From sequence record ON548431.1: a stretch of DNA of 44,379 nt. The stretch is one strand, 5' to 3'. A model generated the notes under the pieces. That model was given only the letters and a program-made list of their open reading frames with translations, was not told where the DNA came from and did no database searches. The DNA comes from Escherichia phage PEC9. Positions 40 through 44,338 of this stretch are shown here, in pieces (within the stretch, counting starts at the first letter, position 1; every line of letters starts with the position of its first letter). The position numbers and the translations under genes are program-made.

Positions 40-49
40 ATTGGTTGCA
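40..49. promoter_or_regulatory. Recurrent intergenic motif ATTGGTTGCA (reverse complement TGCAACCAAT)
   Basis: Exact 10-mer at 40-49 upstream of the first plus-strand gene; degenerate copy ATTGGTCGCA at 71-80; same core recurs at many other intergenic sites. Confidence 0.45.
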
Positions 50-101
50 TCCATGCCAGCACCCTGCTAGATTGGTCGCACACCAACATGAGGACTGAAC
101 G

Positions 102-4252: not shown

Positions 4253-4382
4253 CGACAACCAGTAATCCTCCCAGCCTGCCGATTTGGTGGGCTTTTTTGT
4301 GCCTGTTATAATCCCCATTAGATGGCAGGGCCGTCTCCTATGTTGCCGATGGTCGGCGCATATGAACAAAAGGGCTTATATC

Positions 4383-4934
4383 ATGGCAGAAATCAAAGTT
4401 AAGGGCCGACGCGCCAAACTGGACGGACGAGTCGCAGTTACCCCGCGCCGTAAACCCGGCGAGCAAACCGAGCATACCAATCTCGGACCTGAAATCGAGT
4501 ACGGAAAGCGCCGTAAAGGCGGCAAATGTGGACGCCCTACTGACTACCGATCCGTTTACTGCGACCAGCTTCGCCGCTATTTTGCCGACGCCGACGCCTG
4601 GCAGGTCAACTACTCCGATAAAGGCGCTGCGCAAGTAATACCCCGCAACAAAATGCCAACCTTCGGTCGATTTGCCGCGGAAATCGGCGTGGGCGTAGCT
4701 TGCCTGTATCGCTGGGCGCGTGCGCATGAGGAGTTCGCTGAGGCGATGGCGGACGCAATGGAGTTACAAAAAACCTTCCTGATGGAAGCTGGTGGCGTAA
4801 CCATCGCGGCGGGCTTCGCTACATTCCTGCTTAAAGCAAACCACGGCGTCCGCGACGATGTGCCGCTGGATGACGACGAAGATGATAACGGCGACGTCGT
4901 TGTGGAGCCTACCGGCAAAGGCCAGGGTGAATAA
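4383..4934 (+). CDS. Terminase small subunit
   Basis: Immediately upstream of and overlapping the large subunit (TAATG); acidic C-terminus; start ATG 4383 chosen within ORF 4284-4934, alternative ATG 4362. Confidence 0.55.
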   Translation: MAEIKVKGRRAKLDGRVAVTPRRKPGEQTEHTNLGPEIEYGKRRKGGKCGRPTDYRSVYCDQLRRYFADADAWQVNYSDKGAAQVIPRNKMPTFGRFAAEIGVGVACLYRWARAHEEFAEAMADAMELQKTFLMEAGGVTIAAGFATFLLKANHGVRDDVPLDDDEDDNGDVVVEPTGKGQGE

Positions 4935-6319
4935 TGCGTAACTATGCGGCAGAACACCGCGCCCTTGAACGAGCGATCGCAAAGCGAAACAGACCGCCGC
5001 GCCCGACACGCGTTGCGCAGGCCGTCCGCCTTTACCGGCCAGATTGCTTGCCGCACCAGGTTGAACTACTGCGCGACACGAAGACTAAAATCCTCGGCCT
5101 GTGTTCCGGCTTCGGCGGTGGAAAGTCGTGGGTCGCTGCGCGTAAGGTCATCCAGCTTTTAACCCTGAACCCCGGTCATGACGGCATCGTTACAGAACCG
5201 ACTATTCCCCTTCTGGTTAAAATCATGTACCCGGAATTGGAAAAGGCGTTTGATGAGGCTGGATTCCGGTGGAAGTTCAATAAGCAGGACAAGATCTATA
5301 ACGTGCTGGTGAAAGGGAAATGGACCCGCGTTATCTGTGAATCAATGGAAAACTATACCCGCCTGATCGGGGTCAACGCCGCGTGGATTGTTGCCGATGA
5401 ATTCGACACTACGAAGCAAGACGTCGCGCTGGCGGCATATCACAAACTGCTCGGTCGTCTGCGTGCGGGCTTCGTCCGCCAGTTCGTCATCGTGTCAACG
5501 CCTGAAGGCTACCGGGCGATGTACCAAATTTTCGAGGTGGAGAAAGACAACCAGAAACGCTTGATCCGGGCGAAGACCACGGACAACCACCATTTACCGG
5601 CAGACTTTATCGACACGCTGCGTAGTCAGTACCCAGCTAACCTGATCGACGCGTACTTGAACGGCCTGTTTGTTAACCTTACGTCGGGCGCGGTATACAA
5701 GATGTTTAACCGTGAGGAGAACGCAAGCACCGAAGAAGTGCAGCCGGAAGACACGCTGATTATCGGTATGGACTTTAACGTCACGAAGATGGCGGCGGTT
5801 GTGTACGTCAGACGGCAGCGAGTCACCGAGAACAAGGAGTTCCGCGACGAGATTCACGCGGTGGGCGAATTTGTGGACCTATTTGATACCCCGGCTATGA
5901 TTGAGGCGATCGAGGAGCGCTACCCCGATCATTGTGCTGCCGGTCGTGTTGTCGTTTACCCGGATAGCAGCGGCAAATCACGCAAGACGGTCAACGCGTC
6001 GTCGTCCGATATCGCGCAACTGGAAGACGCAGGCTTTGATGTGGAGTATGACAGCGTTAACCCGCCTGTTAAAGACCGATTGATCGCGATGAATACGATG
6101 ATGTGCAACTCGAAGGGCGTGCGCCAGTATTTTGTCAACCTGGATAAATGCCCTACACTAGCGAAATGTCTGGAACAGCAGGTGTACGACCTGAAGAAAG
6201 GCGAACCGGATAAAACTGCCGGTGTGGACCACATGAATGACGCGGCGGGCTACCCTATTGCGCACTTGTTCCCTGTGATTCGTCCGATCGCCGTTGTTCC
6301 AGCCGTAGACTTCTACTAA
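4934..6319 (+). CDS. Terminase large subunit
   Basis: 461 aa; Walker A-like GFGGGKS near N-terminus; position before portal. Confidence 0.8.
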   Translation: MRNYAAEHRALERAIAKRNRPPRPTRVAQAVRLYRPDCLPHQVELLRDTKTKILGLCSGFGGGKSWVAARKVIQLLTLNPGHDGIVTEPTIPLLVKIMYPELEKAFDEAGFRWKFNKQDKIYNVLVKGKWTRVICESMENYTRLIGVNAAWIVADEFDTTKQDVALAAYHKLLGRLRAGFVRQFVIVSTPEGYRAMYQIFEVEKDNQKRLIRAKTTDNHHLPADFIDTLRSQYPANLIDAYLNGLFVNLTSGAVYKMFNREENASTEEVQPEDTLIIGMDFNVTKMAAVVYVRRQRVTENKEFRDEIHAVGEFVDLFDTPAMIEAIEERYPDHCAAGRVVVYPDSSGKSRKTVNASSSDIAQLEDAGFDVEYDSVNPPVKDRLIAMNTMMCNSKGVRQYFVNLDKCPTLAKCLEQQVYDLKKGEPDKTAGVDHMNDAAGYPIAHLFPVIRPIAVVPAVDFY

Positions 6320-10532: not shown

Positions 10533-10556
10533 TGCAACCAATATACTGCAACCAAC
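10533..10556. promoter_or_regulatory. Two direct copies of TGCAACCAAT / TGCAACCAAC in a divergent intergenic region
   Basis: Read at 10533-10542 and 10547-10556, between minus-strand start 10504 and plus-strand start 10659. Confidence 0.45.
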
Positions 10557-16129: not shown

Positions 16130-16133
16130 CGAA

Positions 16134-16450
16134 GCGGGACAGGCGGGACGTCCCGTTTTGTCCCGCCACCATTAAACTGCATATATACTCACTACCAGTG
16201 CATAAACTAAAAGCGGGACAGGGGTGCTGTCCCGATCTGTCCCGCCCCTTAAAAGTGAATAGCTAAGCGGTTTTTCTGCATAAAACAAACGGGACAAAAA
16301 ACGGGACAGACCAGGGGCGGGACAAAGCGGGACAGCACCCTGTCCCTGCCAGTGCTGCCGCGGGTTTTAGCCGATCGGGACAGGCGGGACAAAGCCCAGT
16401 CTTTCAGACTAGACGGGGGTCATTGGCCCCCCTCGTCTGAGACTGAATAA
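16134..16450. repeat. GGGACA-rich iteron-like repeat region with palindromes, ending in a 75-bp structured element
   Basis: About 14 copies of GGGACA(G/A) in both orientations; palindrome GGGACGTCCC; GGGACAG-N5-CTGTCCC units; 16290-16450 is a near-copy of 44109-44269. Confidence 0.7.
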
Positions 16451-16513
16451 GGTTTGTTTTAAATTCGCTGATACAATGACCGACGGCAACTGCATAAAAA
16501 GGGGGACTGCATA

Positions 16514-19159
16514 ATGGCAGATCAGGCAGCGGGCATCACGCTCAAGGCGGACGTCGCGCAAATTAAAACGGCTAATACTGTGCTGGACACATTTGCGCAG
16601 AAATCCGAGAACACAGAACAGAAAGTAAAGAAATTAAACGACACCCTCGGCAAGTCGAAAAAGGTTACTGGCGACGCCGCTGGCGGAATGGAGAAGTTAG
16701 CGACTGAATCGCAGCGTGCCGCCGATGGCATGACGAAACAGGAGCGACTCGCCAGCCGATTAGGCATGTCTACCAAAAACCTGGGATTCGCATCGCGGAA
16801 CGCCGCATTCCAGTTGCAGGATATTGCGGTAACGCTTGAGATGGGTATGCCGGTCCACCGCGTTATGCTTCAGCAGCTACCGCAGCTTACTGGGGCGTTT
16901 GGCGGACTTGGAAACACACTGCGATATGTTGCGGGCTTTCTCGGCCCAGTAGGGATCGGCCTTTCGGCATTAACGGCGACGTTAGGCGTAGGGGTGGCAA
17001 TTACGACCCGCGCAGAGAACCAGGTGGCGGCGCTTAATAAGACGCTGGCGCTATCCGGTAATATTTCAGGCCTCACAGCTAACCAGATCCTTGTGCTGTC
17101 CGAGAACGCCGAGCGCATGGGCGGGTCATTCCGCAAGACGCGTGACACAATCCAGGCGCTGGCGGCGGCGGGTGTGAAAGCGGGTGGTGACTTCGGCGCA
17201 TTGGCTAAGGTAGTTAATGACTTTGCGAAGGTGTCCAGCCAGCCGATCGAGGATGTGGTAGCGGCGGTGGCGAAGCTGTCAACCGACCCCGTTGGCGGAC
17301 TGCGTGCGCTGGCGGATAAGTATCACGTCGTAAACGAAGCGCAGATCCAGCAGGTACAGTCGCTCGTTGATACGGGTCGTGAGACAGACGCAGTTGCGTT
17401 GGCTAACAAAACAGCCGCGGCGTCGTTCACCAGCATGACCAATGAGATCAAGGCGAACATGGGTACGCTTGAGCGGTCGATGAACGTCGTTACATCGGCA
17501 GCTAAGTCTATGTGGGATGCCATCCTGGATGTGGGCCGCGCGCAGTCCTCCAATGAGTCCGAGATGAAAGCGCGCGAATCACTACAGCGCATGACCACGG
17601 CTTACTATGCCGAGATGAAAGCGGTAAACGCTGCCGGTGGAGTGATGACCGAAGCTCAGAAAGCGCGTATTAACATGCTTTATAGCGAACTGGTCGCCCA
17701 GGAGAAAGTAGTGGCGTCGCTCACCCTTCGTAACCGTGCGGAGCGAGACAACGCCCGCGCCGCAGACGAATCCGCAAAGGCGAACGAGGAGGCTAACCGC
17801 ACCGCCCGCGACCGCGCTGCGTTCGAGAAGGAGTACGCAACTAACGCGAAGAAGCGCGCAGACGAGATAGCCCGCCTCAATTTGCTGAATAAGCGCGGCG
17901 TTATTGACGAGAAAGAGCTTGCTGAGGCGGTTAAGCAGGTAAACGAGCGTTACAAAGACCCGGCCCCGAAGAAGGCCGCGGCTGTTCGCGTGGATGCCGG
18001 TATGAAAATGCTGGAAGTCGCACGGAGCGAACTGGCCCAGCTTCGAGAATCAGGCAAACAGATCGAAGCCAACGCATCGACGCAGACCCGCACGCAACGC
18101 GCTCAAGCGGCCCTAAACAAGCTGATCGCCGACAATGAGCAGTTAATCGCTGCGAGCAAAGAAAGAGCGCTAACGGCAGCCGAAAAGCAGCAGATGGTGG
18201 AATTTGGACGCGTGAAGGAAGTGCGCGAGCAGATCGTCGAAGAAGCCAAATTGCTGGACGCGAAAGAGAAGCAGGTTAAGGCGCACGCGCAGATCGATGC
18301 CTTCGTTAAGAACCAGAACGCCGAACTAAAAGCCACCGCGGCGGGCTATGCGCTTTCCACTCGCGAAGCGGCAAACCTGCGCGAAGAATTGCAGCTAATC
18401 GACCGTCTGAAGAGGGTTGGCGCTAACGATACCGATATAGACAAGGCGGTGTCTAAGCTGCGGGAAGTGCAGGAGGCGCAGACCGGCGCTAACGCCTCGC
18501 TATGGGATGGATTCAGTCGCGGGCTTAAGGATAGCGTGGATGAGATGGGTAACGGATATACGCAGATGACGTCACTCACAAAATTCACGTTCAGCGCTAT
18601 GCAGGACACGATGAACGAGTTTTTCGAGACGGGCAAGATTAACGCGAAGGATATGGTCAAATCCATCCTGAGCGAGTTAATCAAGCTGGCTACCTCGCAG
18701 GCGTTCAAGTCGATTGTTAGCGCTTTCGGTGGTGACGGCGGCAAAAACGGATTGTTCGGCGCTATCTTCTCGGGCCTCACTAAGAATGCGGACGGCGGAG
18801 CGTACGCAGGAGGCAATCTGGCGGCCTATTCGGGGAAAGTGGTAAGCCAGCCTACCTTTTTCAGTTATGGCGTCCAGGCGTTCGCTAAGGGCGCAGGATT
18901 GATGGGTGAGGCCGGTCCCGAGGCCATCATGCCTCTGAAGCGCGGGCCGGACGGGAAACTGGGCGTTGCCGCTTCGGGTGCTGGCGGCGGTGGTATGGTC
19001 GTGACGACTAACGTTTACACGGGGACTGGTAAAACGGATACCAGTGTCAGCGGGCCGGACCCCCGTACCGCGCAGGCGTTCGGCAAGCAAATCACCGAGG
19101 CGGTGAAGGCTGAGATCGTGAAAGCGACGAAACCGGGTGGTGTACTTTACAAACGATGA
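16514..19159 (+). CDS. Tail tape measure protein
   Basis: 881 aa, Ala/Gln-rich with long predicted helices, Gly-rich C-terminus; located between chaperone and tail-tip genes. Confidence 0.8.
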   Translation: MADQAAGITLKADVAQIKTANTVLDTFAQKSENTEQKVKKLNDTLGKSKKVTGDAAGGMEKLATESQRAADGMTKQERLASRLGMSTKNLGFASRNAAFQLQDIAVTLEMGMPVHRVMLQQLPQLTGAFGGLGNTLRYVAGFLGPVGIGLSALTATLGVGVAITTRAENQVAALNKTLALSGNISGLTANQILVLSENAERMGGSFRKTRDTIQALAAAGVKAGGDFGALAKVVNDFAKVSSQPIEDVVAAVAKLSTDPVGGLRALADKYHVVNEAQIQQVQSLVDTGRETDAVALANKTAAASFTSMTNEIKANMGTLERSMNVVTSAAKSMWDAILDVGRAQSSNESEMKARESLQRMTTAYYAEMKAVNAAGGVMTEAQKARINMLYSELVAQEKVVASLTLRNRAERDNARAADESAKANEEANRTARDRAAFEKEYATNAKKRADEIARLNLLNKRGVIDEKELAEAVKQVNERYKDPAPKKAAAVRVDAGMKMLEVARSELAQLRESGKQIEANASTQTRTQRAQAALNKLIADNEQLIAASKERALTAAEKQQMVEFGRVKEVREQIVEEAKLLDAKEKQVKAHAQIDAFVKNQNAELKATAAGYALSTREAANLREELQLIDRLKRVGANDTDIDKAVSKLREVQEAQTGANASLWDGFSRGLKDSVDEMGNGYTQMTSLTKFTFSAMQDTMNEFFETGKINAKDMVKSILSELIKLATSQAFKSIVSAFGGDGGKNGLFGAIFSGLTKNADGGAYAGGNLAAYSGKVVSQPTFFSYGVQAFAKGAGLMGEAGPEAIMPLKRGPDGKLGVAASGAGGGGMVVTTNVYTGTGKTDTSVSGPDPRTAQAFGKQITEAVKAEIVKATKPGGVLYKR

Positions 19160-20582: not shown

Positions 20583-21323
20583 ATGTTAACGAAGAAGGTT
20601 AAAAGCGATATCGCCGCACACGTCGCGGCCTGTCTGCCGGAAGAAGCCTGTGGCCTGGTTGTCATGGTGGGTCGTAAGCAAGTGTTCGTCCCATGTCTGA
20701 ACGTATTCGAAGACCCGACCGGCGTGCGCTCACGCAAAGACGCTTTTACGATTAGTGATATGGCCTGGATGGATGCCGAGGATATGGGCGACGTCGTGCG
20801 CGTAGTCCACTCGCATCCAGGCCAGAGAGAGCTTACCCCCTCACTGGGCGACGTTAACGGATGCAACGGCAGCGGCGTAGTCTGGACCATCACTAACGAA
20901 TATGGCGATTTTATCGAGATCGACCCTGAAGACCCTCCGCTGGTGGGGCGTCGATTTGTTCTCGGAATTACGGATTGTTACGGCCTCGTCATGGACTGGC
21001 ACAAAAAGCAGGGCGTAAACCTGCCAGACTTCCGCGTGCCGTATAACTGGTGGGAGACAGGCGAAAATCTGTATATGGATAATTGGTACGGTGCTGGCTT
21101 CAGGGAATGCGAGGAGAATACGCCGGGGGCAATGGTCATCATGCAGATTAGCGCGCCAGTGCCTAACCACGCTGGGATATTCCTTCCGGGCAACCAACTA
21201 CTACACCATATCTACGGCAGTCTGTCGAGCGTAGTCCCCTTCCGGGCAGGATTTTTCCGCGACAATGTGGTTAAATGGGTCCGTCATAAAGACCTACCGG
21301 GGAATATCACAGAATGGCAATGA
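20583..21323 (+). CDS. Tail assembly protein (lambda K-like; JAMM/MPN plus NlpC/P60-like)
   Basis: 246 aa; HSHP motif (VVRVVHSHPGQ) and downstream Cys/His (ITDCYG, WH); order in tail-tip block. Confidence 0.65.
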   Translation: MLTKKVKSDIAAHVAACLPEEACGLVVMVGRKQVFVPCLNVFEDPTGVRSRKDAFTISDMAWMDAEDMGDVVRVVHSHPGQRELTPSLGDVNGCNGSGVVWTITNEYGDFIEIDPEDPPLVGRRFVLGITDCYGLVMDWHKKQGVNLPDFRVPYNWWETGENLYMDNWYGAGFRECEENTPGAMVIMQISAPVPNHAGIFLPGNQLLHHIYGSLSSVVPFRAGFFRDNVVKWVRHKDLPGNITEWQ

Positions 21324-26590: not shown

Positions 26591-26644
26591 GGTATCATCA
26601 CCTATATTTGGTCGAGTTTTAGTATTACACCGCTCGATCAAGAA

Positions 26645-26654
26645 TGCAACCAAT
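26645..26654. promoter_or_regulatory. Recurrent motif TGCAACCAAT upstream of tail fibre gene
   Basis: Exact 10-mer 17 bp upstream of ATG 26671, in a divergent intergenic region. Confidence 0.45.
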
Positions 26655-26670
26655 TTACGAGGATTTAGCT

Positions 26671-28503
26671 ATGGCAGCGGGTACACTATCCGTAACGAAT
26701 AACAGCAAGGCGGTTGTCGGGGTAGGCACGACGTTTACCGCGTTTAAAGCCGGAGACTTCTTATCGCTGGTAGTGGGGCAAGTACCCTACACTGTTGCGA
26801 TCGCGTCCGTAGAAAGCGACACCGCGATTACGCTTGTGCTGCCGTTCGACGGACCCACGGCAACTGGCCTCGCGTGGGATGGCGTTAAGCGCGATACCAT
26901 GTCGCTGGCAACGATGGGCGTAACAGTACAGGCGCAGAAAGCGTTGCGCTTGATGATCGCGGACGAAAACAACTGGCGCGCAATCTTCGGAGACGAGGAA
27001 GAAATCGCGGTAACGCTGCCGAACGGGCAAGTTATGCAGGGTATGTCGTGGGGCTATCTGTCGCAATTGCTGAAGGAAGTTGACCCCGTTGAAATGCGCA
27101 ACCTGCAACAACAAGCCGCGGCATCTGAAGCAGCAGCGCTGGTATCGCGTAATGAGGCCGAAGGCTTCAAGAACGATACCAATACCATCAAGACGCAGAC
27201 CAACCAGATTAAGGCAGATACGCAGGCTATCCGCGACGCCACCAATACCATCAAGACGCAGACCAACAAGATTAAGGCAGATACGCAGGCCATCAAAGAC
27301 CAGACGAACCAGATCAAGACTGACACCGGCGTTATGAGGGACCAGGCCAACGCTGCGAAGACTGACGCGCAAGCTGCCAGCGCAGCCGCGCAGGGATTCC
27401 GCGATCAGGCCGAGGAGTGGGCGCAAAGCGTTAACGCGGATAACCTGCTAACAAAATCCGGCAACCTGGCAGGGCTTGCGGATAAATCGGCGTCGTGGAA
27501 GAACCTTATGCCTGCGGGGCCGCTGCGAATTGGGGCGCACCCCGTTGCGGACCTGGATGCCGCGACCCGGAAATGGACGCTGGAGCGTTTTACCAAAGGC
27601 GTGGCGGAGTCGTCGTGGACTGTCAGGAAAACCGTCACCACCACACCACAGAACGGCACTGTCGTCCGTGGCGGTGAGGTGGAATCGAGATATTCCAACC
27701 CAACATCTACGCAGTTCGCCCGTCTGTACTCAAGCTCTGTATTTGGTTCTTCTAACGCGGCTGTTGTTGAGGCAGAGGGTTCTTCCAGGCACGCTTATAA
27801 ATTCTATGAGGATGGCACAGTTGACTTCCGACAGTCAGGGAAGACCAACCCATTCCGCATGTATACAAATATTGGAACATGGAATGGCATAACGGACGCC
27901 ACGGCATCCAACTTGACAACTAACGGAATGGACAGGGTGGCCATTTCGAGCGGCTCAGATACTCTGGTGCACGGATATTCTATCGGCGGCACCAAACCTA
28001 ATGGATATCCAACAAAGGTTGGATATCACATGTATATTCCAGGCAATAATGCATTTGGTATTGCTTGCATGGTAATCGGTGGGGATAACGGAAAATTTTG
28101 CCGTTACTTTTTTGACATTGATGGTCTAATATATGGTTCGACCGATTACGGGAACTTCAGTTATATGAAAAATGGCACTTCTGACTTACGTGTAAAACAC
28201 GGCATCGCCCATGTTGGAGTTGACAAATCATACTCTAATATTAAAGGGCTGGAATTTGTAGAGTTCATTTATGATAATGACGAACAAAATCGAGTTCGGC
28301 ATGGCGTGATTGCACAGCAAGCAGAGGTTGTTGAGCCTTTATATGTCAAGACGCGCAAATATGTTGGCAATAATCCAGGAGAGATTGTGGAGCAGAAGGA
28401 ACTGGACACTACGCCGATGCTTCTGGATACCATGCATGTTGTGCAGACGTTGATGCAGAAGATCGAGGCTATGGAGGCCGAGATCGCGGCGCTGAAGAAA
28501 TGA
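26671..28503 (+). CDS. Tail fibre with predicted C-terminal intramolecular chaperone domain
   Basis: 611 aa from ATG 26671 (GAGGA RBS); internal repeats TNTIKTQTNQIKADTQAI; C-terminal region ending ...EAMEAEIAALKK resembles autocleaving chaperone domains of phage fibres. Confidence 0.65.
   Translation: MAAGTLSVTNNSKAVVGVGTTFTAFKAGDFLSLVVGQVPYTVAIASVESDTAITLVLPFDGPTATGLAWDGVKRDTMSLATMGVTVQAQKALRLMIADENNWRAIFGDEEEIAVTLPNGQVMQGMSWGYLSQLLKEVDPVEMRNLQQQAAASEAAALVSRNEAEGFKNDTNTIKTQTNQIKADTQAIRDATNTIKTQTNKIKADTQAIKDQTNQIKTDTGVMRDQANAAKTDAQAASAAAQGFRDQAEEWAQSVNADNLLTKSGNLAGLADKSASWKNLMPAGPLRIGAHPVADLDAATRKWTLERFTKGVAESSWTVRKTVTTTPQNGTVVRGGEVESRYSNPTSTQFARLYSSSVFGSSNAAVVEAEGSSRHAYKFYEDGTVDFRQSGKTNPFRMYTNIGTWNGITDATASNLTTNGMDRVAISSGSDTLVHGYSIGGTKPNGYPTKVGYHMYIPGNNAFGIACMVIGGDNGKFCRYFFDIDGLIYGSTDYGNFSYMKNGTSDLRVKHGIAHVGVDKSYSNIKGLEFVEFIYDNDEQNRVRHGVIAQQAEVVEPLYVKTRKYVGNNPGEIVEQKELDTTPMLLDTMHVVQTLMQKIEAMEAEIAALKK
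27178..27303 (+). repeat. 63-bp tandem direct repeat (2 units plus partial third) inside tail fibre gene
   Basis: Unit 27178-27240 and unit 27241-27303 differ at a few positions; partial third unit follows. Confidence 0.7.
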
Positions 28504-29724: not shown

Positions 29725-29747
29725 TGCAACCAATCTATTGGTTGCAA
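29725..29747. promoter_or_regulatory. Perfect palindrome TGCAACCAAT-cta-ATTGGTTGCA
   Basis: Read directly; overlaps the stop codon of the minus-strand HAD gene and lies about 55 bp upstream of the next minus-strand start; adjacent GGGGGC-N6-GCCCCC hairpin at 29691-29708. Confidence 0.55.
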
Positions 29748-31638: not shown

Positions 31639-31665
31639 TGCAACCAATATGATTATGCAACCAAT
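31639..31665. promoter_or_regulatory. Two direct copies of TGCAACCAAT, 17 bp apart
   Basis: Read at 31639-31648 and 31656-31665, about 55 bp upstream of minus-strand start 31586. Confidence 0.5.
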
Positions 31666-34597: not shown

Positions 34598-34876
34598 CTA
34601 CGCGACCAATTCAGCAACCAATAAATCGCAGTCGGATATGTTGTCGATAACGCGAACGTCAGCACCGCGGCGGGCCATTCGCTCATGTTCACGTACCTGG
34701 TGCGGCTTCGGTTTTCCTCCGGGGCGCTTCACTTCGACGAACACTATTTTGCCGTTGATGATAATAATCAGGTCGGGCGCACCTGCGCGCCCCTCCCATG
34801 CCAGTTTTCGGCAGAATCCGCCAACATCTTTCACCCGTCTCATCAGGTGACTTTGTATCTTGCCCTCTGGTGTCAT
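34598..34876 (-). CDS. VRR-NUC-type nuclease
   Basis: 92 aa from ATG 34876; segment GAPDLIIIINGKIVFVEVKRPGGKP matches the PD...E-x-K core of VRR-NUC domains; directly downstream of polymerase. Confidence 0.55.
   Translation of the reverse strand: MTPEGKIQSHLMRRVKDVGGFCRKLAWEGRAGAPDLIIIINGKIVFVEVKRPGGKPKPHQVREHERMARRGADVRVIDNISDCDLLVAELVA
34614..34622. promoter_or_regulatory. Motif core GCAACCAAT
   Basis: 9-mer at 34614-34622, about 60 bp upstream of minus-strand start 34557. Confidence 0.35.
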
Positions 34877-37391: not shown

Positions 37392-38177
37392 TTAACGGCG
37401 GCGACGTTTACGTGGTGCTTCGTCTTCGTCGTCTTCGTCCTCATCTTCATCGTCGCGCGGCTTACGACGTTTACGAGGTTTCTCATCTTCGTCGTCTTCG
37501 TCGTCATCGCGGCGCTTGGACTTTTTGGACTTGCGCGGCTTGTCGTCTTCGTCATCGTCATCACGACGTTTTGACTTTTTGGCCTTGCGCGGGCTTTCAT
37601 CTTCGTCATCGTTGTCCAGGTCTTCGTCGGAGCAAGAAGACCCGCCACCGCCGAAGGCTTCACCGTCATCACGGAAGCGTAAACCCAGCAAGCCAGCACC
37701 GAGTCCCTTGCCGTTGGTGTTGTTCCACGCCCAAATATCCAAGGACACGTTGCAATAACATCCGGAGTAGATCTCCTGGCCTTCGATCTCGTCGCCTTCT
37801 ACGGTCAGACCTTGTTCAGTCTGCTTCTCGCCGAGTGACGTTTGAATGTTTGGCTGTTTGAACGATTTGGCGTTGATGTACAACATGCCTTCGAATTCTT
37901 CGGTCACTTCATCGCGCTCGTCACCGTCGCGAACTGCGCATTCCTTAGAATCCTGTGCGTAGTGGCGGTCCATCCACTTATCGGCGTTCTTCTCGGATTT
38001 CAGCTTGTCGGTGAGCACTGCGCGCGCTGCCGCTTCCACTTTGTCCACCTGCGGATCTTCTTTATCAAGAAGAATCACTGCACGGTATGCCGGTTTTTGA
38101 CCATCCTGTTTAGGGGTATCGCGTTCCCAAATTTTAAGGAAACATACGCGCACATTTTTCAGGTTGACTTTAGCCAT
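37392..38177 (-). CDS. SSB-like protein with alternating acidic/basic repetitive C-terminal tail
   Basis: 261 aa from ATG 38177 (GAGGA RBS); C-terminal about 80 aa made of repeats such as DEDE-KPRKSKKSKRR-DDDEDDEDE; co-located with Cas4-like nuclease; SSB role inferred. Confidence 0.5.
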   Translation of the reverse strand: MAKVNLKNVRVCFLKIWERDTPKQDGQKPAYRAVILLDKEDPQVDKVEAAARAVLTDKLKSEKNADKWMDRHYAQDSKECAVRDGDERDEVTEEFEGMLYINAKSFKQPNIQTSLGEKQTEQGLTVEGDEIEGQEIYSGCYCNVSLDIWAWNNTNGKGLGAGLLGLRFRDDGEAFGGGGSSCSDEDLDNDDEDESPRKAKKSKRRDDDDEDDKPRKSKKSKRRDDDEDDEDEKPRKRRKPRDDEDEDEDDEDEAPRKRRRR

Positions 38178-38232
38178 TTTCCAATTCCTCATTTTAACAT
38201 GTATCGGGGCTATTGTGAGCCACCCCGTTCGG

Positions 38233-38257
38233 CTTGGTTGCTAATCTACTTGGTTGC
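38233..38257. promoter_or_regulatory. Two direct copies of CTTGGTTGC (reverse complement GCAACCAAG)
   Basis: Read at 38233-38241 and 38249-38257 between two minus-strand genes. Confidence 0.4.
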
Positions 38258-41198: not shown

Positions 41199-41208
41199 AT
41201 TGGTTGCA
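41199..41208. promoter_or_regulatory. Recurrent motif ATTGGTTGCA in divergent early control region
   Basis: Exact 10-mer between minus early gene (40995) and plus gene (41397). Confidence 0.45.
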
Positions 41209-41396: not shown

Positions 41397-41726
41397 ATGA
41401 ATATCAAAGAAGCAATTGAAGTGTTATCTAATGCAATCCGCGGCGAAGCGGGTAAATCCTGGTATTACACAAATGCGGTGGATACTCTGTTATTTGAAGT
41501 GTCCAGATTATCGCGTGCTGAGAAGGAGCTTACCGCGAAGCTGGAATTACTCAACGGCACGGCAGCAAGCAAGCTGCAAAAGCACAATGAAGAAATGGAA
41601 GAATACAAAAAACAGGTTATCCGTTTGCGCGCCGAGGGCAAATCCTGGGCAATGATCGCTGAGTTGACAGGAATTAATCAGAGCACCGTGCGCTCCTGGG
41701 TACGCAATAATAAAACTTCGAAGTAA
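41397..41726 (+). CDS. Small HTH DNA-binding protein (putative transcription regulator)
   Basis: 109 aa; C-terminal helix-turn-helix-like segment (SWAMIAELTGINQSTVRSWV); AGGAG RBS. Confidence 0.5.
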   Translation: MNIKEAIEVLSNAIRGEAGKSWYYTNAVDTLLFEVSRLSRAEKELTAKLELLNGTAASKLQKHNEEMEEYKKQVIRLRAEGKSWAMIAELTGINQSTVRSWVRNNKTSK

Positions 41727-41736
41727 GGCAACGGCA

Positions 41737-44001
41737 ATGAGCTTAATTAAATTCGCGGTAACACGACCCGCTAAAAAAGGCGAAAAAGCCAGGGCGGAAA
41801 ACTTCCAGATGACCACCGATGAATTTTTCGAATTTATCAATGACGCGAAAGAAATCTCCTCGGTGCATATCAACAAGACGGAAGATAAAGCCGAGTATGC
41901 GCGCCGCAAGCGTAAGGCCGATGGCATCGTAGCTTATACCAGTGACGGCCTGCGCCGCAAGACCAGTGCGGTGGACCGCTCGATCCTGTTCTTCGATATT
42001 GACCGCACCGACACTCGCACCCTACGCCGCTGCCGTAAGGCTTTCATCGACGCGGGGCTGGAGCACGTATTCCACACAACCACCGGCGACCGCCACCCGC
42101 TGAAAGGCGGCACGCGTTGCGCCCGTTTCCTGGTACTCACTGACAAGCCTGTACCGGCGGAAGACCTGGGCCGTGTCCAGTATGCGCTATTACACCAACT
42201 TGGCCTGTCAGATGTGGACTTCGACGATTGCACGAAAGACACAAACCGCCTGATGTACCTGCCGCACCAGCAGTCTGTCATTAAGTGTCACTACGGCAAA
42301 CGTGCCCGCGTCCGTCGTCTGCTCCGCCTGGCGGATACGCTTGGCGTGGAGAAGGAAGAAGTACGCCGCGAGCTTACCCAGGGCGACGACGCAGTGGCAG
42401 ACGGCATTCTGGACTGGTGCTTCCAGGCAGGATTCGAGGAGTTATCTTCCGGTCGCGGTTATGAAGTGCCGTGCCCGAACGAACATCTGCACAGCGGCGA
42501 AGGGTCGACGGCTATCATGGTCAAGGATGGCGAGATCCGTTTCAAGTGTATGCACACCGGCAACGAGTGTTGCTCGGAGCTAAATAGACACCAGCACCTG
42601 GCGCTACGTCTTATCGGGATACCGGACCACCTGAACGTCGAGCCGCACAACATGTCACGTAAGCAAATTGCCGCCATCCTCCCAGGGCTGGACGACGAGG
42701 AAGTCGAATCCTTATATGAACATATTGTTGATGCGGTTGGCGACGGCGAAGAATACGGCGTGTGCACCGATGCGGATCTGGATAACGAGCCGGTCGCACT
42801 ATTCAGTAAGCACGACCCGATCATCGAAGGTCTGATTAACTTCAAATCGACCTGGTATATGGCTGGCGAGTCGAACATCGGCAAGTCCTTCTATGTGCTG
42901 GGGCAGATGGGCGCGGTTGCCGCGGGTATCCCGTTTGGCGGTGCGAAGGTCGTCCAGTCTCATTGCTTCTATTTCGATGCGGAAGGTGGTGAAGCCTCTA
43001 ACCAGCGCAAAGAAGCATTGCAGATTAAATACGAGCACGACCTGGACAAGCTGCACATTATCGACCTGCAGTCTCGCGGCTGGGATATCACCAGCAAGTC
43101 CGGTTTGCGCGAAGTTATCAGCTTTATCAACCGCACCGCTAACGGCGAACCTGTTGGCCTGGTGGCGTTCGACTCACTCAACCAGACTGTTGCGCTGCGG
43201 TCCGCCGATGCTAAACCGTTTGACGAGAACAACGCCAGCGATATGGGTGAAGTAGTCAAAGCGCTGAAAGCCATTGCGGAAAACACGGGGGGCAGTGCGG
43301 GCGTCATCCACCACCCGGCGAAGGGTGCAAACGGCAGCAGAACCCCACGCGGATCCGGCGCACTGCATGGCGCTGTCGATTCCGCTTTCTTCCTGGAACA
43401 GCCGGACGACAACCAACCAGGCCAATTGAACCTGTATCACGAAAAATCACGTAACGGTATCAAGCAAGCGCCGCGTGGCTTCGTCCTGCTCAAGTGCAAG
43501 GTGAAGGTGGATCTCCGCAAGTCAGAAGCGTTCGAGGCGCACCAGTCCACCAGCACCGGTCCGGACTTCGGAGACGTAGTTGCCGGTTGGGACGTCAAAC
43601 CAATTGCGTCCACCCCGCGCGACGAGACTTTATACCTCGTACCGGTCGCCCTGGCACCGTTCGCTATAGAACAGGCGAAGGCCGCAGGAAAAGCCGCAGT
43701 TAAGGAAGAGAACACCGCCGGACCGCGCACCGAAAAAGAAAAGGTACTTTACGCGGCCCTGGAAAAACTGATGGAAGATAACCCGGACCATACTGGTTTC
43801 AGTAAATCGGCAATTGTCCGCCAGGCTGGACTCGCGAAGGGTGGCACTTCGACGAAGGCAATAGACGATATGGTCGAGCGCGGCGTGATTGGTTTCTATA
43901 CAGACCCGCACACCGGGGCCATATATGGGTCATCGAATTTAGTCATTAAATCGGATATCCCCATTACACTTTCTGCGACCGATGACGACCTGAAAGATTA
44001 A
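41737..44001 (+). CDS. Primase-helicase (N-terminal primase-like domain, central P-loop ATPase, C-terminal putative DNA-binding domain)
   Basis: 754 aa; acidic motif FFDIDRTD, Cys/His cluster (CPNEHLHSGEG ... FKCMHTGNEC), Walker A GESNIGKS, Walker B-like LVAFDSL; C-terminal domain assignment is a guess. Confidence 0.7.
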   Translation: MSLIKFAVTRPAKKGEKARAENFQMTTDEFFEFINDAKEISSVHINKTEDKAEYARRKRKADGIVAYTSDGLRRKTSAVDRSILFFDIDRTDTRTLRRCRKAFIDAGLEHVFHTTTGDRHPLKGGTRCARFLVLTDKPVPAEDLGRVQYALLHQLGLSDVDFDDCTKDTNRLMYLPHQQSVIKCHYGKRARVRRLLRLADTLGVEKEEVRRELTQGDDAVADGILDWCFQAGFEELSSGRGYEVPCPNEHLHSGEGSTAIMVKDGEIRFKCMHTGNECCSELNRHQHLALRLIGIPDHLNVEPHNMSRKQIAAILPGLDDEEVESLYEHIVDAVGDGEEYGVCTDADLDNEPVALFSKHDPIIEGLINFKSTWYMAGESNIGKSFYVLGQMGAVAAGIPFGGAKVVQSHCFYFDAEGGEASNQRKEALQIKYEHDLDKLHIIDLQSRGWDITSKSGLREVISFINRTANGEPVGLVAFDSLNQTVALRSADAKPFDENNASDMGEVVKALKAIAENTGGSAGVIHHPAKGANGSRTPRGSGALHGAVDSAFFLEQPDDNQPGQLNLYHEKSRNGIKQAPRGFVLLKCKVKVDLRKSEAFEAHQSTSTGPDFGDVVAGWDVKPIASTPRDETLYLVPVALAPFAIEQAKAAGKAAVKEENTAGPRTEKEKVLYAALEKLMEDNPDHTGFSKSAIVRQAGLAKGGTSTKAIDDMVERGVIGFYTDPHTGAIYGSSNLVIKSDIPITLSATDDDLKD

Positions 44002-44011
44002 ATTTTGCGCG

Positions 44012-44056
44012 CATTGGTTGCCATTTTGAGTGTTTTTAGCCGGTCGCATTGGTTGC
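44012..44056. promoter_or_regulatory. Two direct copies of CATTGGTTGC just downstream of primase stop
   Basis: Read at 44012-44021 and 44047-44056; reverse-complement copy GCAACCAATG at 44329-44338 on the far side of the repeat. Confidence 0.45.
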
Positions 44057-44108
44057 CGTGTAGTGTGAATATAATGCATAGTTATGCAATAAAACTGCAT
44101 AAAGTAAG

Positions 44109-44269
44109 CGGGACAAAAAGCGGGACAGACCAGGGGCGGGACAAAGCGGGACAGCACCCCTGTCCCGCCCCGGATGACGCGGCCTGGCGGGGAGCGGGAC
44201 AGGCGGGACAAAGCCCAGTCTTTCAGACTAGACGGGGGTCATTGGCCCCCCTCGTCTGAGACTGAATAA
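44109..44269. repeat. Second copy of the ~160-bp GGGACA-rich structured repeat (last 75 bp identical to 16376-16450)
   Basis: Left part 44109-44165 about 90 percent identical to 16290-16346; 29-bp divergent middle; right part 44195-44269 identical to 16376-16450. Confidence 0.75.
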
Positions 44270-44328
44270 AATCCGGGATTGCATAATACACGGCAGCACA
44301 TTGGAAATCGCGGTCGTCGCTGAACTAG

Positions 44329-44338
44329 GCAACCAATG
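44329..44338. promoter_or_regulatory. Recurrent motif GCAACCAATG, inverted relative to 44012-44056
   Basis: Read directly in the terminal non-coding region. Confidence 0.4.

Follow-up and report, generated by a model that had tools for sequence, protein, structure and literature searches.

The genome of Escherichia phage PEC9 (record ON548431.1; the complete stretch of 44,379 nt analyzed here is referred to as the window), a Dhillonvirus, that is, an HK578/SO-1-like E. coli siphophage, harbors a 75-bp non-coding unit in two copies, A (16376-16450) and B (44195-44269), both on the plus strand and 27.8 kb apart. With somewhat better than even confidence, we read this unit as the most constrained part of an iteron-type replication origin, or at least as the loading site of the phage primase-helicase, which would be present twice in Dhillonviruses. 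Copy B is part of region B, which extends from 44002 to the end of the window and on through 1-101, immediately behind the primase-helicase gene (41737-44001; 754 aa), whereas copy A is part of region A (16130-16513), located between the open reading frames (ORFs) that follow the major tail gene (tail-chaperone ORFs) and the tape-measure gene (start at 16514). Region B would represent the phage replication origin with the 75-bp unit as its core, as suggested by an arrangement that resembles Rep/ori of the staphylococcal pathogenicity islands (SaPIs), P4 alpha, pRN1, and RSF1010 oriV, and region A may be a duplicated origin core that serves as a second origin or as a helper similar to the cis replication region (crr) of P4.

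An earlier, sequence-only reading of this stretch had claimed perfect identity of both segments, which is borne out by direct comparison: the identity spans exactly 75 bp and cannot be extended by a single base to the left or right, as the flanking bases differ. For an exact repeat of this size in 44 kb, the chance expectation (roughly 1e9 position pairs x 4^-75) is essentially nil. Each unit is enclosed by a repeated non-coding module of about 200 bp, seen as a direct repeat of 195 nt with 84 % identity (16256-16450 versus 44075-44269). The first 16 nt of the unit consist of two CGGGACA heptamers (iterons; 16376-16382 and 16385-16391 in copy A, 44195-44201 and 44204-44210 in copy B), followed by a 49-nt imperfect palindrome (16397-16445 and 44216-44264, respectively) and by AATAA. 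The heptamer is strongly enriched, with 22 occurrences in the window as compared to 6.5 expected (22 was reached in 0 of 100 shuffles), and 18 of these 22 sit in the non-coding regions A and B, where spacings of 12, 16, 10, 48, and 9 are common to both. The main iteron array of region A (16290-16346, plus strand) comprises direct heptamers at 16290, 16302, 16318, and 16328 and, after the fourth, its hairpin partner, an inverted TGTCCC; in the corresponding array of region B (44109-44167, plus strand), the direct heptamers start at 44109, 44121, 44137, and 44147 and the inverted copy occupies 44161-44167. Region B, which begins where the primase-helicase gene ends (stop codon at 44001), holds seven copies of CGGGACA.

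The nested inverted repeats that had been noticed in the unit are all present, namely AGTCT-TTC-AGACT (16398-16410), AGACGGGGG-TCATTGG-CCCCCCTCGTCT (16411-16438), and GTCTGAGAC. The palindrome, which is not assigned to either strand, can accordingly be drawn either as a single 20-bp hairpin or as two successive ones (16398-16410 and 16411-16438) with GAGACTG (16439-16445) as a distal addition, and the minimum-energy fold indeed merges the repeats into a single imperfect hairpin with 20 pairs (16397-16445). Folded as RNA, both strands are stable (-32.9 kcal/mol for plus, z = -3.2, with 0 of 200 shuffles as stable; -31.1 kcal/mol for minus), and DNA parameters give -15.0 and -15.4. The palindrome apex TTGGCCCC (TTGTCCCC in LM40P1-like phages) looks like an inverted iteron.

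Within the genus, conservation was assessed on loci that were fetched through their flanking proteins and thus not chosen for the element. The palindrome occurs in 15 of 16 loci after the primase-helicase gene and in 14 of 15 loci before the tape-measure gene, both exceptions being cut by contig ends. Across 29 protein-anchored loci its arms are invariant, save for two substitutions in the distal arm of lineage L166, and all other variation is confined to the apical loop and the bulge. In a second, pattern-retrieved set of 33 copies, 29 have a 75-nt unit and four a 76-nt unit, and 53 of the 75 positions never vary among the 29 copies, some of these positions being fixed by the retrieval pattern itself. 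In the most distant genomes, the flanking DNA is merely 76-79 % identical. Over approximately 200 nt, identities amount to 0.89 among A copies and 0.90 among B copies, as compared to 0.83 for A versus B of the same genome and 0.82 for A versus B of different genomes. Within the 75-nt unit, the number of differences between A and B in 15 genomes is 0, 1, 1, 1, 2, 4, 4, 4, 6, 6, 6, 6, 10, 10, and 11, so that the perfect identity in PEC9 constitutes the extreme of a distribution. Moreover, identical unit variants are found at both loci in different phages, and wherever both loci of a Dhillonvirus genome could be inspected (15 genomes), regions A and B are separated by 27.8 kb. Judging from these alignments, the identity of A and B is the product of strong purifying selection on both copies and occasional short-patch gene conversion. 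Selection or gene conversion had already been suggested on the basis of the identity, and this proposal gains substance from the near-invariant arms, the occurrence of the palindrome in every locus not cut by a contig end, and the circulation of variants between the loci.

The architecture extends well beyond the genus. Related loci were collected by alignment of the primase-helicase (protein identities of 43-88 %), with further contigs added via exact protein look-up; the C-terminal 176 aa alone retrieved no match as homologue query, and the full-length protein was therefore used. At least seven related lineages share the same order of elements after the primase-helicase gene, each with its own repeat and palindrome. 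From the stop codon onward, one or two GTGAATAGTTATGCA boxes are followed by three to four direct repeats of 7-8 nt, an inverted copy that can form a hairpin with the last direct repeat, the conserved spacer GGGTTTGTTGCCGA, two more direct repeats, the long imperfect palindrome, a short AT-rich stretch (TTATTCA...), the motif (C)ACGGCA(A/G)C, and a strong sigma-70-like promoter of the next gene, which reads TTGCAn-17-TAATAT/TATTGT in the other lineages. None of the lineages examined lacks the motif (C)ACGGCA(A/G)C behind the palindrome. The repeat itself is CGGGACA in Dhillonvirus and a lineage with 68 % identity (together the window and L164-L166, with L166 representing the 68 % lineage) and GGGGGAG in Cornellvirus-like Salmonella phages (L035, L174, L188). 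In uncultured phages it is TCCGACA (L179, L186, L189), CGGACAA (two lineages; L181 and L183 as well as L089, L184, and L185), TTGCGAGT or TTGCGA (L169-L173, L187, L191), TCCGCACA (L193), or TGTGGCA (L194, the contig of which ends inside the iteron array).

An imperfect hairpin of 50-115 nt is located at the same position in eight lineage types with unrelated sequences, as illustrated by the first small stem (e. g., AGTCT/AGACT, CTCCT/AGGAG, or TCATC/GATGA). The apex of several lineages repeats their own iteron in inverted orientation (TCTGTCGGA, TCTGTCCGA, TTGTCC, or, in LM40P1-like Dhillonviruses, TTGTCCCC). Covariation across relatives, which had been named as a way of checking the element, is seen in lineage L6 (repeat TTGCGAGT), where the 26 pairs of the hairpin include four compensatory and no broken ones; the 12 hairpin differences between its two subtypes comprise eight in the four compensatory pairs, two G-C to G-U changes, and two unpaired positions. 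Across lineages it is the structure of the palindrome that is conserved and not its sequence. Neither strand is consistently ahead in hairpin stability, the minus strand being as good or better in most lineages, which fits a DNA palindrome better than an RNA of one strand. We rejected a long-range stem formed by the spacer GTTTGTTGCCG and the anchor CGGCAACAAAG, because the variable positions (T/C versus A/G) combine freely; without co-variation, spacer and anchor are better read as inverted binding sites than as a helix.

The protein that would act on these sites is encoded on the plus strand and combines a primase fold of the archaeo-eukaryotic primase (AEP) type (residues ~1-210), an AAA_25 helicase (residues 357-531), and a predicted winged helix (residues ~666-738, nt 43732-43950). 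A model of the N-terminal 350 residues (mean predicted local distance difference test, pLDDT, of 86) matches the AEP domain of the cyanophage S-2L PrimPol (E 4.9e-6) and, as second fold match, the RSF1010 primase RepB' (3h20; E 4.4e-3, prob 0.99). Residues 357-531 belong to Pfam AAA_25 (RepA-like ATPase, E 2e-19), with RSF1010 RepA as best PDB sequence match of the helicase region (E 0.53). In the AlphaFold2 (AF2) model, residues ~666-738 adopt a helix-helix-helix-strand-strand order with pLDDT values of 80-89, and we propose this predicted C-terminal winged helix as the iteron-binding initiator part of the primase-helicase.

This proposal draws on the putative recognition-helix segment that opens the third helix, as each repeat type has its own version of it: TSTKAIDD or TNTTAINA accompanies CGGGACA, DRYKILKD accompanies GGGGGAG, RRRPA... 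accompanies TCCGACA, N(Q/S)RRR..VKE accompanies CGGACAA, NYKKVLEE or HYGKTLAK accompanies TTGCGA(GT), RYSDALKK accompanies TCCGCACA, and SSTKPIND accompanies TGTGGCA. Most informative are natural chimeras. Residues 1-600 of the L188 and L181 proteins show 91-100 % identity, as against 44 % for the last ~70 residues, and the repeats and palindromes of the two differ; the same pattern recurs in L184 versus L186 and in L188 versus L189, with 44-50 % identity in the last domain across the chimeras. Conversely, L181/L184 and L186/L179 agree in repeat and last domain (66-69 % identity), but not in the core. In these alignments, the iteron type follows the winged-helix domain and not the primase-helicase core, and iteron specificity, judged by co-variation only, would lie in the C-terminal domain. 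At the sequence level, the chimeras (L181/L183 versus L188, L184 versus L186, and L188 versus L189) show what appears to be a modular exchange of origin specificity in uncultured phages. Better candidates for recognition by a host factor or some conserved domain are the lineage-independent motifs, namely ACGGCARC and the GTGAATAGTTATGCA and TTATGCA boxes.

Another candidate reader of the iterons was a 109-aa helix-turn-helix (HTH) protein encoded upstream of the primase-helicase gene (41397-41726, plus strand; HTH_23, Sigma70_r4_2), which in this form is restricted to the Dhillonvirus clade. It was rejected, since the HTH regulator of other lineages, a small Cro-like protein in the upstream position, does not differ between L188, L189, and L181, each of which has another repeat. 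The 109-aa protein is instead a probable transcription regulator.

Several known replication systems resemble the proposed arrangement. SaPI Rep reads short iterons with its C-terminal winged helix, and 6-12 iterons, some of them opposed, are located directly 3' of rep; AT-rich DNA lies nearby, specificity differs between lineages, and in SaPI5 a primase is fused to Rep (PMC9371898). Likewise, short iterons immediately follow the helicase ORF in region B and the at least seven related lineages, although copy A is not beside the gene. In contrast to the RecA-type AAA_25 (RepA-like) domain of the phage protein, SaPI Rep is an AAA+ superfamily 3 (SF3) helicase, and the SaPI ori features a central AT-rich region, no long conserved palindrome, and a single origin. 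In the archaeal plasmid pRN1, the orf56/orf904 operon encodes a small DNA-binding regulator followed by a prim-pol/helicase/winged-helix protein, and a long stem-loop downstream of the replication gene is required for replication, with similar arrangements in some phages (PMC4234260). The long imperfect hairpin downstream of the replication-protein gene, at the same place in eight lineage types, is reminiscent of this element, yet pRN1 has an SF3 helicase, no iterons, and a stem-loop of ~100 nt, whereas the Dhillonvirus palindrome measures ~50 nt (relatives, 50-115 nt) and iterons are prominent.

The oriV of the IncQ plasmid RSF1010 combines a RepA-type hexameric helicase, an AEP-class primase, iterons, and the hairpin-forming inverted repeats ssiA and ssiB (ssi, single-strand initiation; PMC8567376). 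The likeness, which holds at fold and family level only, concerns the RepA-type helicase and the RepB'-type primase. RepA, RepB', and RepC are separate proteins in RSF1010, while the phage has one fused protein and no separate initiator was identified; moreover, the RSF1010 primase recognizes the ssi hairpins by their sequence, whereas the phage palindromes vary under a near-identical primase. The RSF1010 iterons are 20-bp repeats read by RepC, as opposed to 7 bp in the phage. The alpha protein of phage P4 also unites primase, helicase, and a C-terminal winged-helix origin-binding domain in one polypeptide, and short iterons occur at two places of the P4 genome, ori and crr (partly PMC4234260). 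Two separate cis sites with the same iterons are equally present in Dhillonviruses (regions A and B in all 15 genomes examined). P4 alpha differs by its Toprim primase and SF3 helicase from the AEP fold and RepA-like helicase of the phage protein. To our knowledge, no long palindrome has been described for the P4 ori. The repeat regions of Dhillonviruses themselves have been noted before, as the GenBank record of Sodalis phage SO-1 annotates both A and B as repeat regions (direct, inverted, and palindromic repeats).

Mechanistically, the winged-helix domains of a primase-helicase hexamer would contact the direct iterons as well as the apex, which resembles an inverted iteron, and the palindrome between and around these sites would be distorted or extruded as a cruciform. 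The neighboring AT-rich DNA would then melt, the helicase would load itself, and the AEP primase would prime close by, possibly at the lineage-independent ACGGCARC. Copy A, in the gap between the tail-chaperone ORFs and the tape-measure gene, may be a second origin in its own right or may assist in cis, like P4 crr, and both copies would remain near-identical since one protein reads both, aided by short-patch gene conversion. Among the functions that the sequence-only reading had put forward, a protein-recognized DNA cruciform comes nearest to this model; the heptamer array and the link to a replication gene had been missed. Unusual features, as far as they can be predicted, would be the fusion of an SF4-type helicase to an AEP primase and an origin-binding domain, the strictly conserved palindrome, and the second copy in the tail operon. 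A bolder version, to which we give little credence, is that the RecA-type (SF4, RepA-like) primase-helicase loads itself without a loader at the palindrome between opposed iterons and fires two identical origins, with firing or occupancy of the tail-operon origin gating the tape-measure and tail-tip genes via TGaTACAAT (16469-16477). If true, such gating would physically couple replication initiation to late gene dosage.

A number of points weigh against the origin reading, which is based wholly on architecture and co-variation. While the leading Foldseek matches of residues ~666-738 in the PDB are mostly winged helices (prob up to 0.99, 76 columns), every E-value exceeds 0.1. The coding segment of the winged helix lies less than 300 bp from the iterons, so that their co-inheritance could reflect physical linkage and not recognition, and the link between protein and iterons is not universal, as L175-L182 and L192 encode a similar protein with winged helix but have a terminator and opposite-strand genes and no iterons after the gene. 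The GC-skew profile tracks gene orientation, with neither region standing out, and the AT-rich stretches are short (~30 bp). In addition, copy A is embedded midway in the late tail operon with an invariant extended -10 directly after it, a setting that would suit a transcriptional role as well, and given that no terminator precedes either copy, both are probably transcribed by read-through, which makes a role at the RNA level possible.

Such a transcriptional role, with the heptamers as activator or repressor sites, the palindrome as operator, and a weak promoter just downstream (TGaTACAAT at A, CATAAT at B), is possible above all for copy A, although as an account of the whole element we regard it as unlikely. 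Each copy is situated upstream of a long plus-strand gene block (the tape-measure block for A; the small-gene, lysis, and terminase block for B), a -10-like hexamer and then ACGGCA follow 17-26 nt past each copy, with the A version invariant throughout the genus, and one phage protein, of the HTH type, has features reminiscent of sigma-70 region 4. Yet a consensus sigma-70 scan (-35/-10 with 16-18 nt spacing) found no site in region A or B, nor did a scan of the whole window place one at the element, and none was found directly upstream of the unit in region A; the promoter module that had been considered for the unit thus lacks a -35/-10 pair within the 75 bp, and the hexamers after the two copies stand at different distances from the palindrome (a discrepancy of 9 nt). 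Other lineages have no -10 at this place and furnish the downstream genes with a strong promoter of their own (TTGCAn-17-TAATAT/TATTGT). The iteron type moreover tracks the last ~70 residues of the replication protein rather than the HTH protein (identical across three types), and the ancestral place of the element is the 3' end of a replication gene, as for the SaPI, P4, and pRN1 origins. Transcriptional control would leave both this link and the separate promoter after region B unexplained. Still less probable, in our estimation, is a cis-acting RNA whose plus-strand hairpin serves as RNase III site, 3'-end stabilizer, non-canonical terminator, put-like antiterminator, or small RNA. RNase III cleaves imperfect duplexes of about 20 bp, a size that the hairpin would suit; its stability is well beyond that of shuffled sequences (z -3.2 to -4.4), the L6 lineage exhibits compensatory changes together with two plus-strand G-U/G-C alternations, and the element is probably transcribed, as no terminator separates it from the upstream gene. 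Against this, searches of the whole window with Rfam 15 at gathering score, put-like antiterminator RNAs included, gave no match, and for region A with E up to 10 only below-threshold miRNA- or snoRNA-like chance matches appeared, mostly on iteron palindromes; a tRNA/tmRNA scan was negative. A terminator scan of both regions and the whole window found none at the palindrome (tails TGAGACTGAATAA on plus and TAGTCTGAAAGAC on minus, hence no T/U run past the stem on either strand), while canonical terminators are present elsewhere in the window. The structured terminator formerly suggested is therefore disfavored, as is the small RNA, for which a Rfam match, a framing promoter and terminator, and a consistent strand preference are all missing. 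The minus strand folds equally well or better in most lineages, as expected for a DNA palindrome, direct 7-bp repeats spaced 9-16 bp around the element are typical of double-stranded DNA binding sites, and within the genus the arm sequence itself is invariant, beyond what mere pairing would demand.

A narrower origin model, in which the palindrome sequence is a recognition site of the AEP primase as ssiA/ssiB are for RepB', strikes us as distinctly doubtful. It is attractive in that the N-terminal domain matches RepB' at the fold level and the RSF1010 ssi signals are 40-nt hairpin-containing sequences beside iterons, but lineages with 91-100 % identical primase and helicase have unrelated palindromes. 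Sequence-specific reading of the palindrome by the primase is therefore unlikely and structure-specific reading alone would remain; the lineage-independent ACGGCARC suits a conserved primase better. Repeated protein-binding sites and palindromes are also found at packaging (pac), recombination, and partition sites, and the direct repeats could mediate recombination. A site of this kind with no replication role is nevertheless highly improbable, considering that neither copy is near the terminase genes (4284-6319), no partition or recombinase gene adjoins, and the iteron type tracks the replication protein.

Returning to the reading of the unit as an origin core, copy B would occupy the ancestral position and copy A would be an inserted duplicate. 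In the Cornellvirus-like phage SaI_NFG_5577, the gap before the tape-measure gene is unrelated to the iteron region, which points to the second copy being specific to Dhillonvirus. Guernseyvirinae (Kagunavirus and Jerseyvirus, helicase-primase ~32-35 % identical) have no comparable non-coding region after the gene, and an exact 14-mer search of viral contigs with the conserved GTGAATAGTTATGC box returned matches that were mostly by chance. Both PEC9 loci are 100 % identical to those of phage PEC14, and regions A and B are both present in ~150 related records; among the E. coli genomes and plasmids searched, no copy was found. Literature on Dhillonvirus promoters and transcriptomes, HK578 repeats, and EP23/SO-1 origins does not describe regions A and B, and no description of a Dhillonvirus replication origin was found in the searchable literature.

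Dhillonviruses are common E. coli phages in work on phage defense and therapy (BASEL phages and SECphi4 belong to the genus). If the model is true, it would provide an origin and a determinant of initiator specificity for Dhillonvirus, Cornellvirus-like Salmonella phages, and several uncultured lineages, the natural domain-swap chimeras would render iteron recognition directly testable, and three RSF1010 Rep functions (RepA-like SF4 helicase, origin-binding domain, and AEP primase) would be united in one protein. For phage engineering, deletions or insertions in the origin regions may prove lethal. Origin-based interference is known from dairy phages, and the origin regions described here could conceivably act as decoys that titrate the initiator. 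Gene callers place spurious small ORFs over iteron regions: in the window, the mechanical ORFs 43939-44211 (minus) and 44005-44259 (plus) overlap them, and in Salmonella phage SaI_NFG_5577 (L036 15795-16314) the small "hypothetical proteins" XRM22914-XRM22916 are annotated over such a region. These ORFs are probably not genes.

Further features surround the two units. Region A alone contains extra iteron palindromes (16132-16167 and 16211-16249, within 16132-16249, without strand assignment), each preceded by a GCATAA box. The spacer motif GGGTTTTAGCCGA (16362-16374, plus strand) stands before copy A, and its counterpart GGGTTTGTTGCCGA, kept in other lineages, is an inverted copy of the anchor ACGGCAAC. 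Copy A is followed by an AT-rich stretch (16446-16477, plus strand, GC 0.30) that ends in the extended -10-like TGaTACAAT (16469-16477, hexamer 16472-16477), which shows no variation among the A copies of the genus; the stretch is possibly an unwinding element, a tape-measure promoter, or both, and AT-rich patches flank the GC-rich block. The anchor ACGGCAAC follows at 16483-16490 (plus strand) and, as ACGGCAGC, at 44290-44297 (plus strand) after copy B, where a -10-like CATAAT (44282-44287) precedes it. ACGGCAGC and ACGGCAAC are the two commonest 8-mers of the genome (36 on the plus and 14 on the minus strand), with Markov z-scores of only ~2.5; their abundance may stem from codons (xAC-GGC-AxC) or mark a primase site. 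The left part of region B (44002-44108, plus strand) holds two CGCATTGGTTGCC boxes (44010-44032 and 44045-67), a TATAAT (44070-44075), and an inverted TTATGCA/TGCATAA pair (44082-44102).

TTATGCA/TGCATAA boxes number 14 in the window as compared to 5.8 expected, seven of them within regions A and B (16199-16205, 16277-16283, 16491-16497, 16508-16514, 44082-44088, 44096-44102, and 44280-44286). Together with their flanks, they match 7-8 of the 9 bases that make up the DnaA-box consensus TTATNCACA, and a further copy of the box is formed by the unit end TGAATAA, which reads TGCATAA in many relatives; from the motif, host DnaA may possibly act at these sites. The interval 16469-16516 before the tape-measure start contains TGaTACAAT, ACGGCAAC, two TGCATAA boxes, the last of which overlaps the ATG, and a G-rich Shine-Dalgarno sequence. 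A regulated promoter of their own may drive the tape-measure and distal tail genes.

Downstream of region B, small plus-strand genes, lysis genes, and the terminase genes follow. A sigma-70-like promoter (41-73, plus strand; TTGCAT at 45-50, 17-nt spacer, TAGATT at 68-73) just upstream of the first gene (ATG at 102) provides this block with a promoter of its own and is overlapped by the octamer TTGGTTGC (41-48). This octamer, usually as ATTGGTTGC, occurs 18 times in the window as compared to 1.7 expected, mostly at intergenic or promoter-like places including both sides of region B (41-48, 605-612, 2916-2923, 10534-10555, 21190-21197, 26646-26653, 29726-29745, 31640-31664, 34614-34621, 38234-38257, 41200-41207, 44014-44056, and 44329-44336); equivalent places hold ATGTTGGCTG or GCGGCCAAC in other lineages. 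It is probably an operator or promoter motif of the phage HTH regulator.

Two coding repeats lie elsewhere in the window. Three tandem repeats of 63 nt (partly 42 nt), 63-89 % identical, are located at 27173-27340 in a plus-strand ORF of 619 aa (26644-28503), probably a tail fiber or tip protein. At 37402-37596, GTC/TTC-rich periodic repeats of 9 and 54 nt (read on the plus strand) fall inside the minus-strand gene for a gp2.5-like single-stranded DNA-binding protein (37392-38192) and would encode an acidic/basic repetitive tail.

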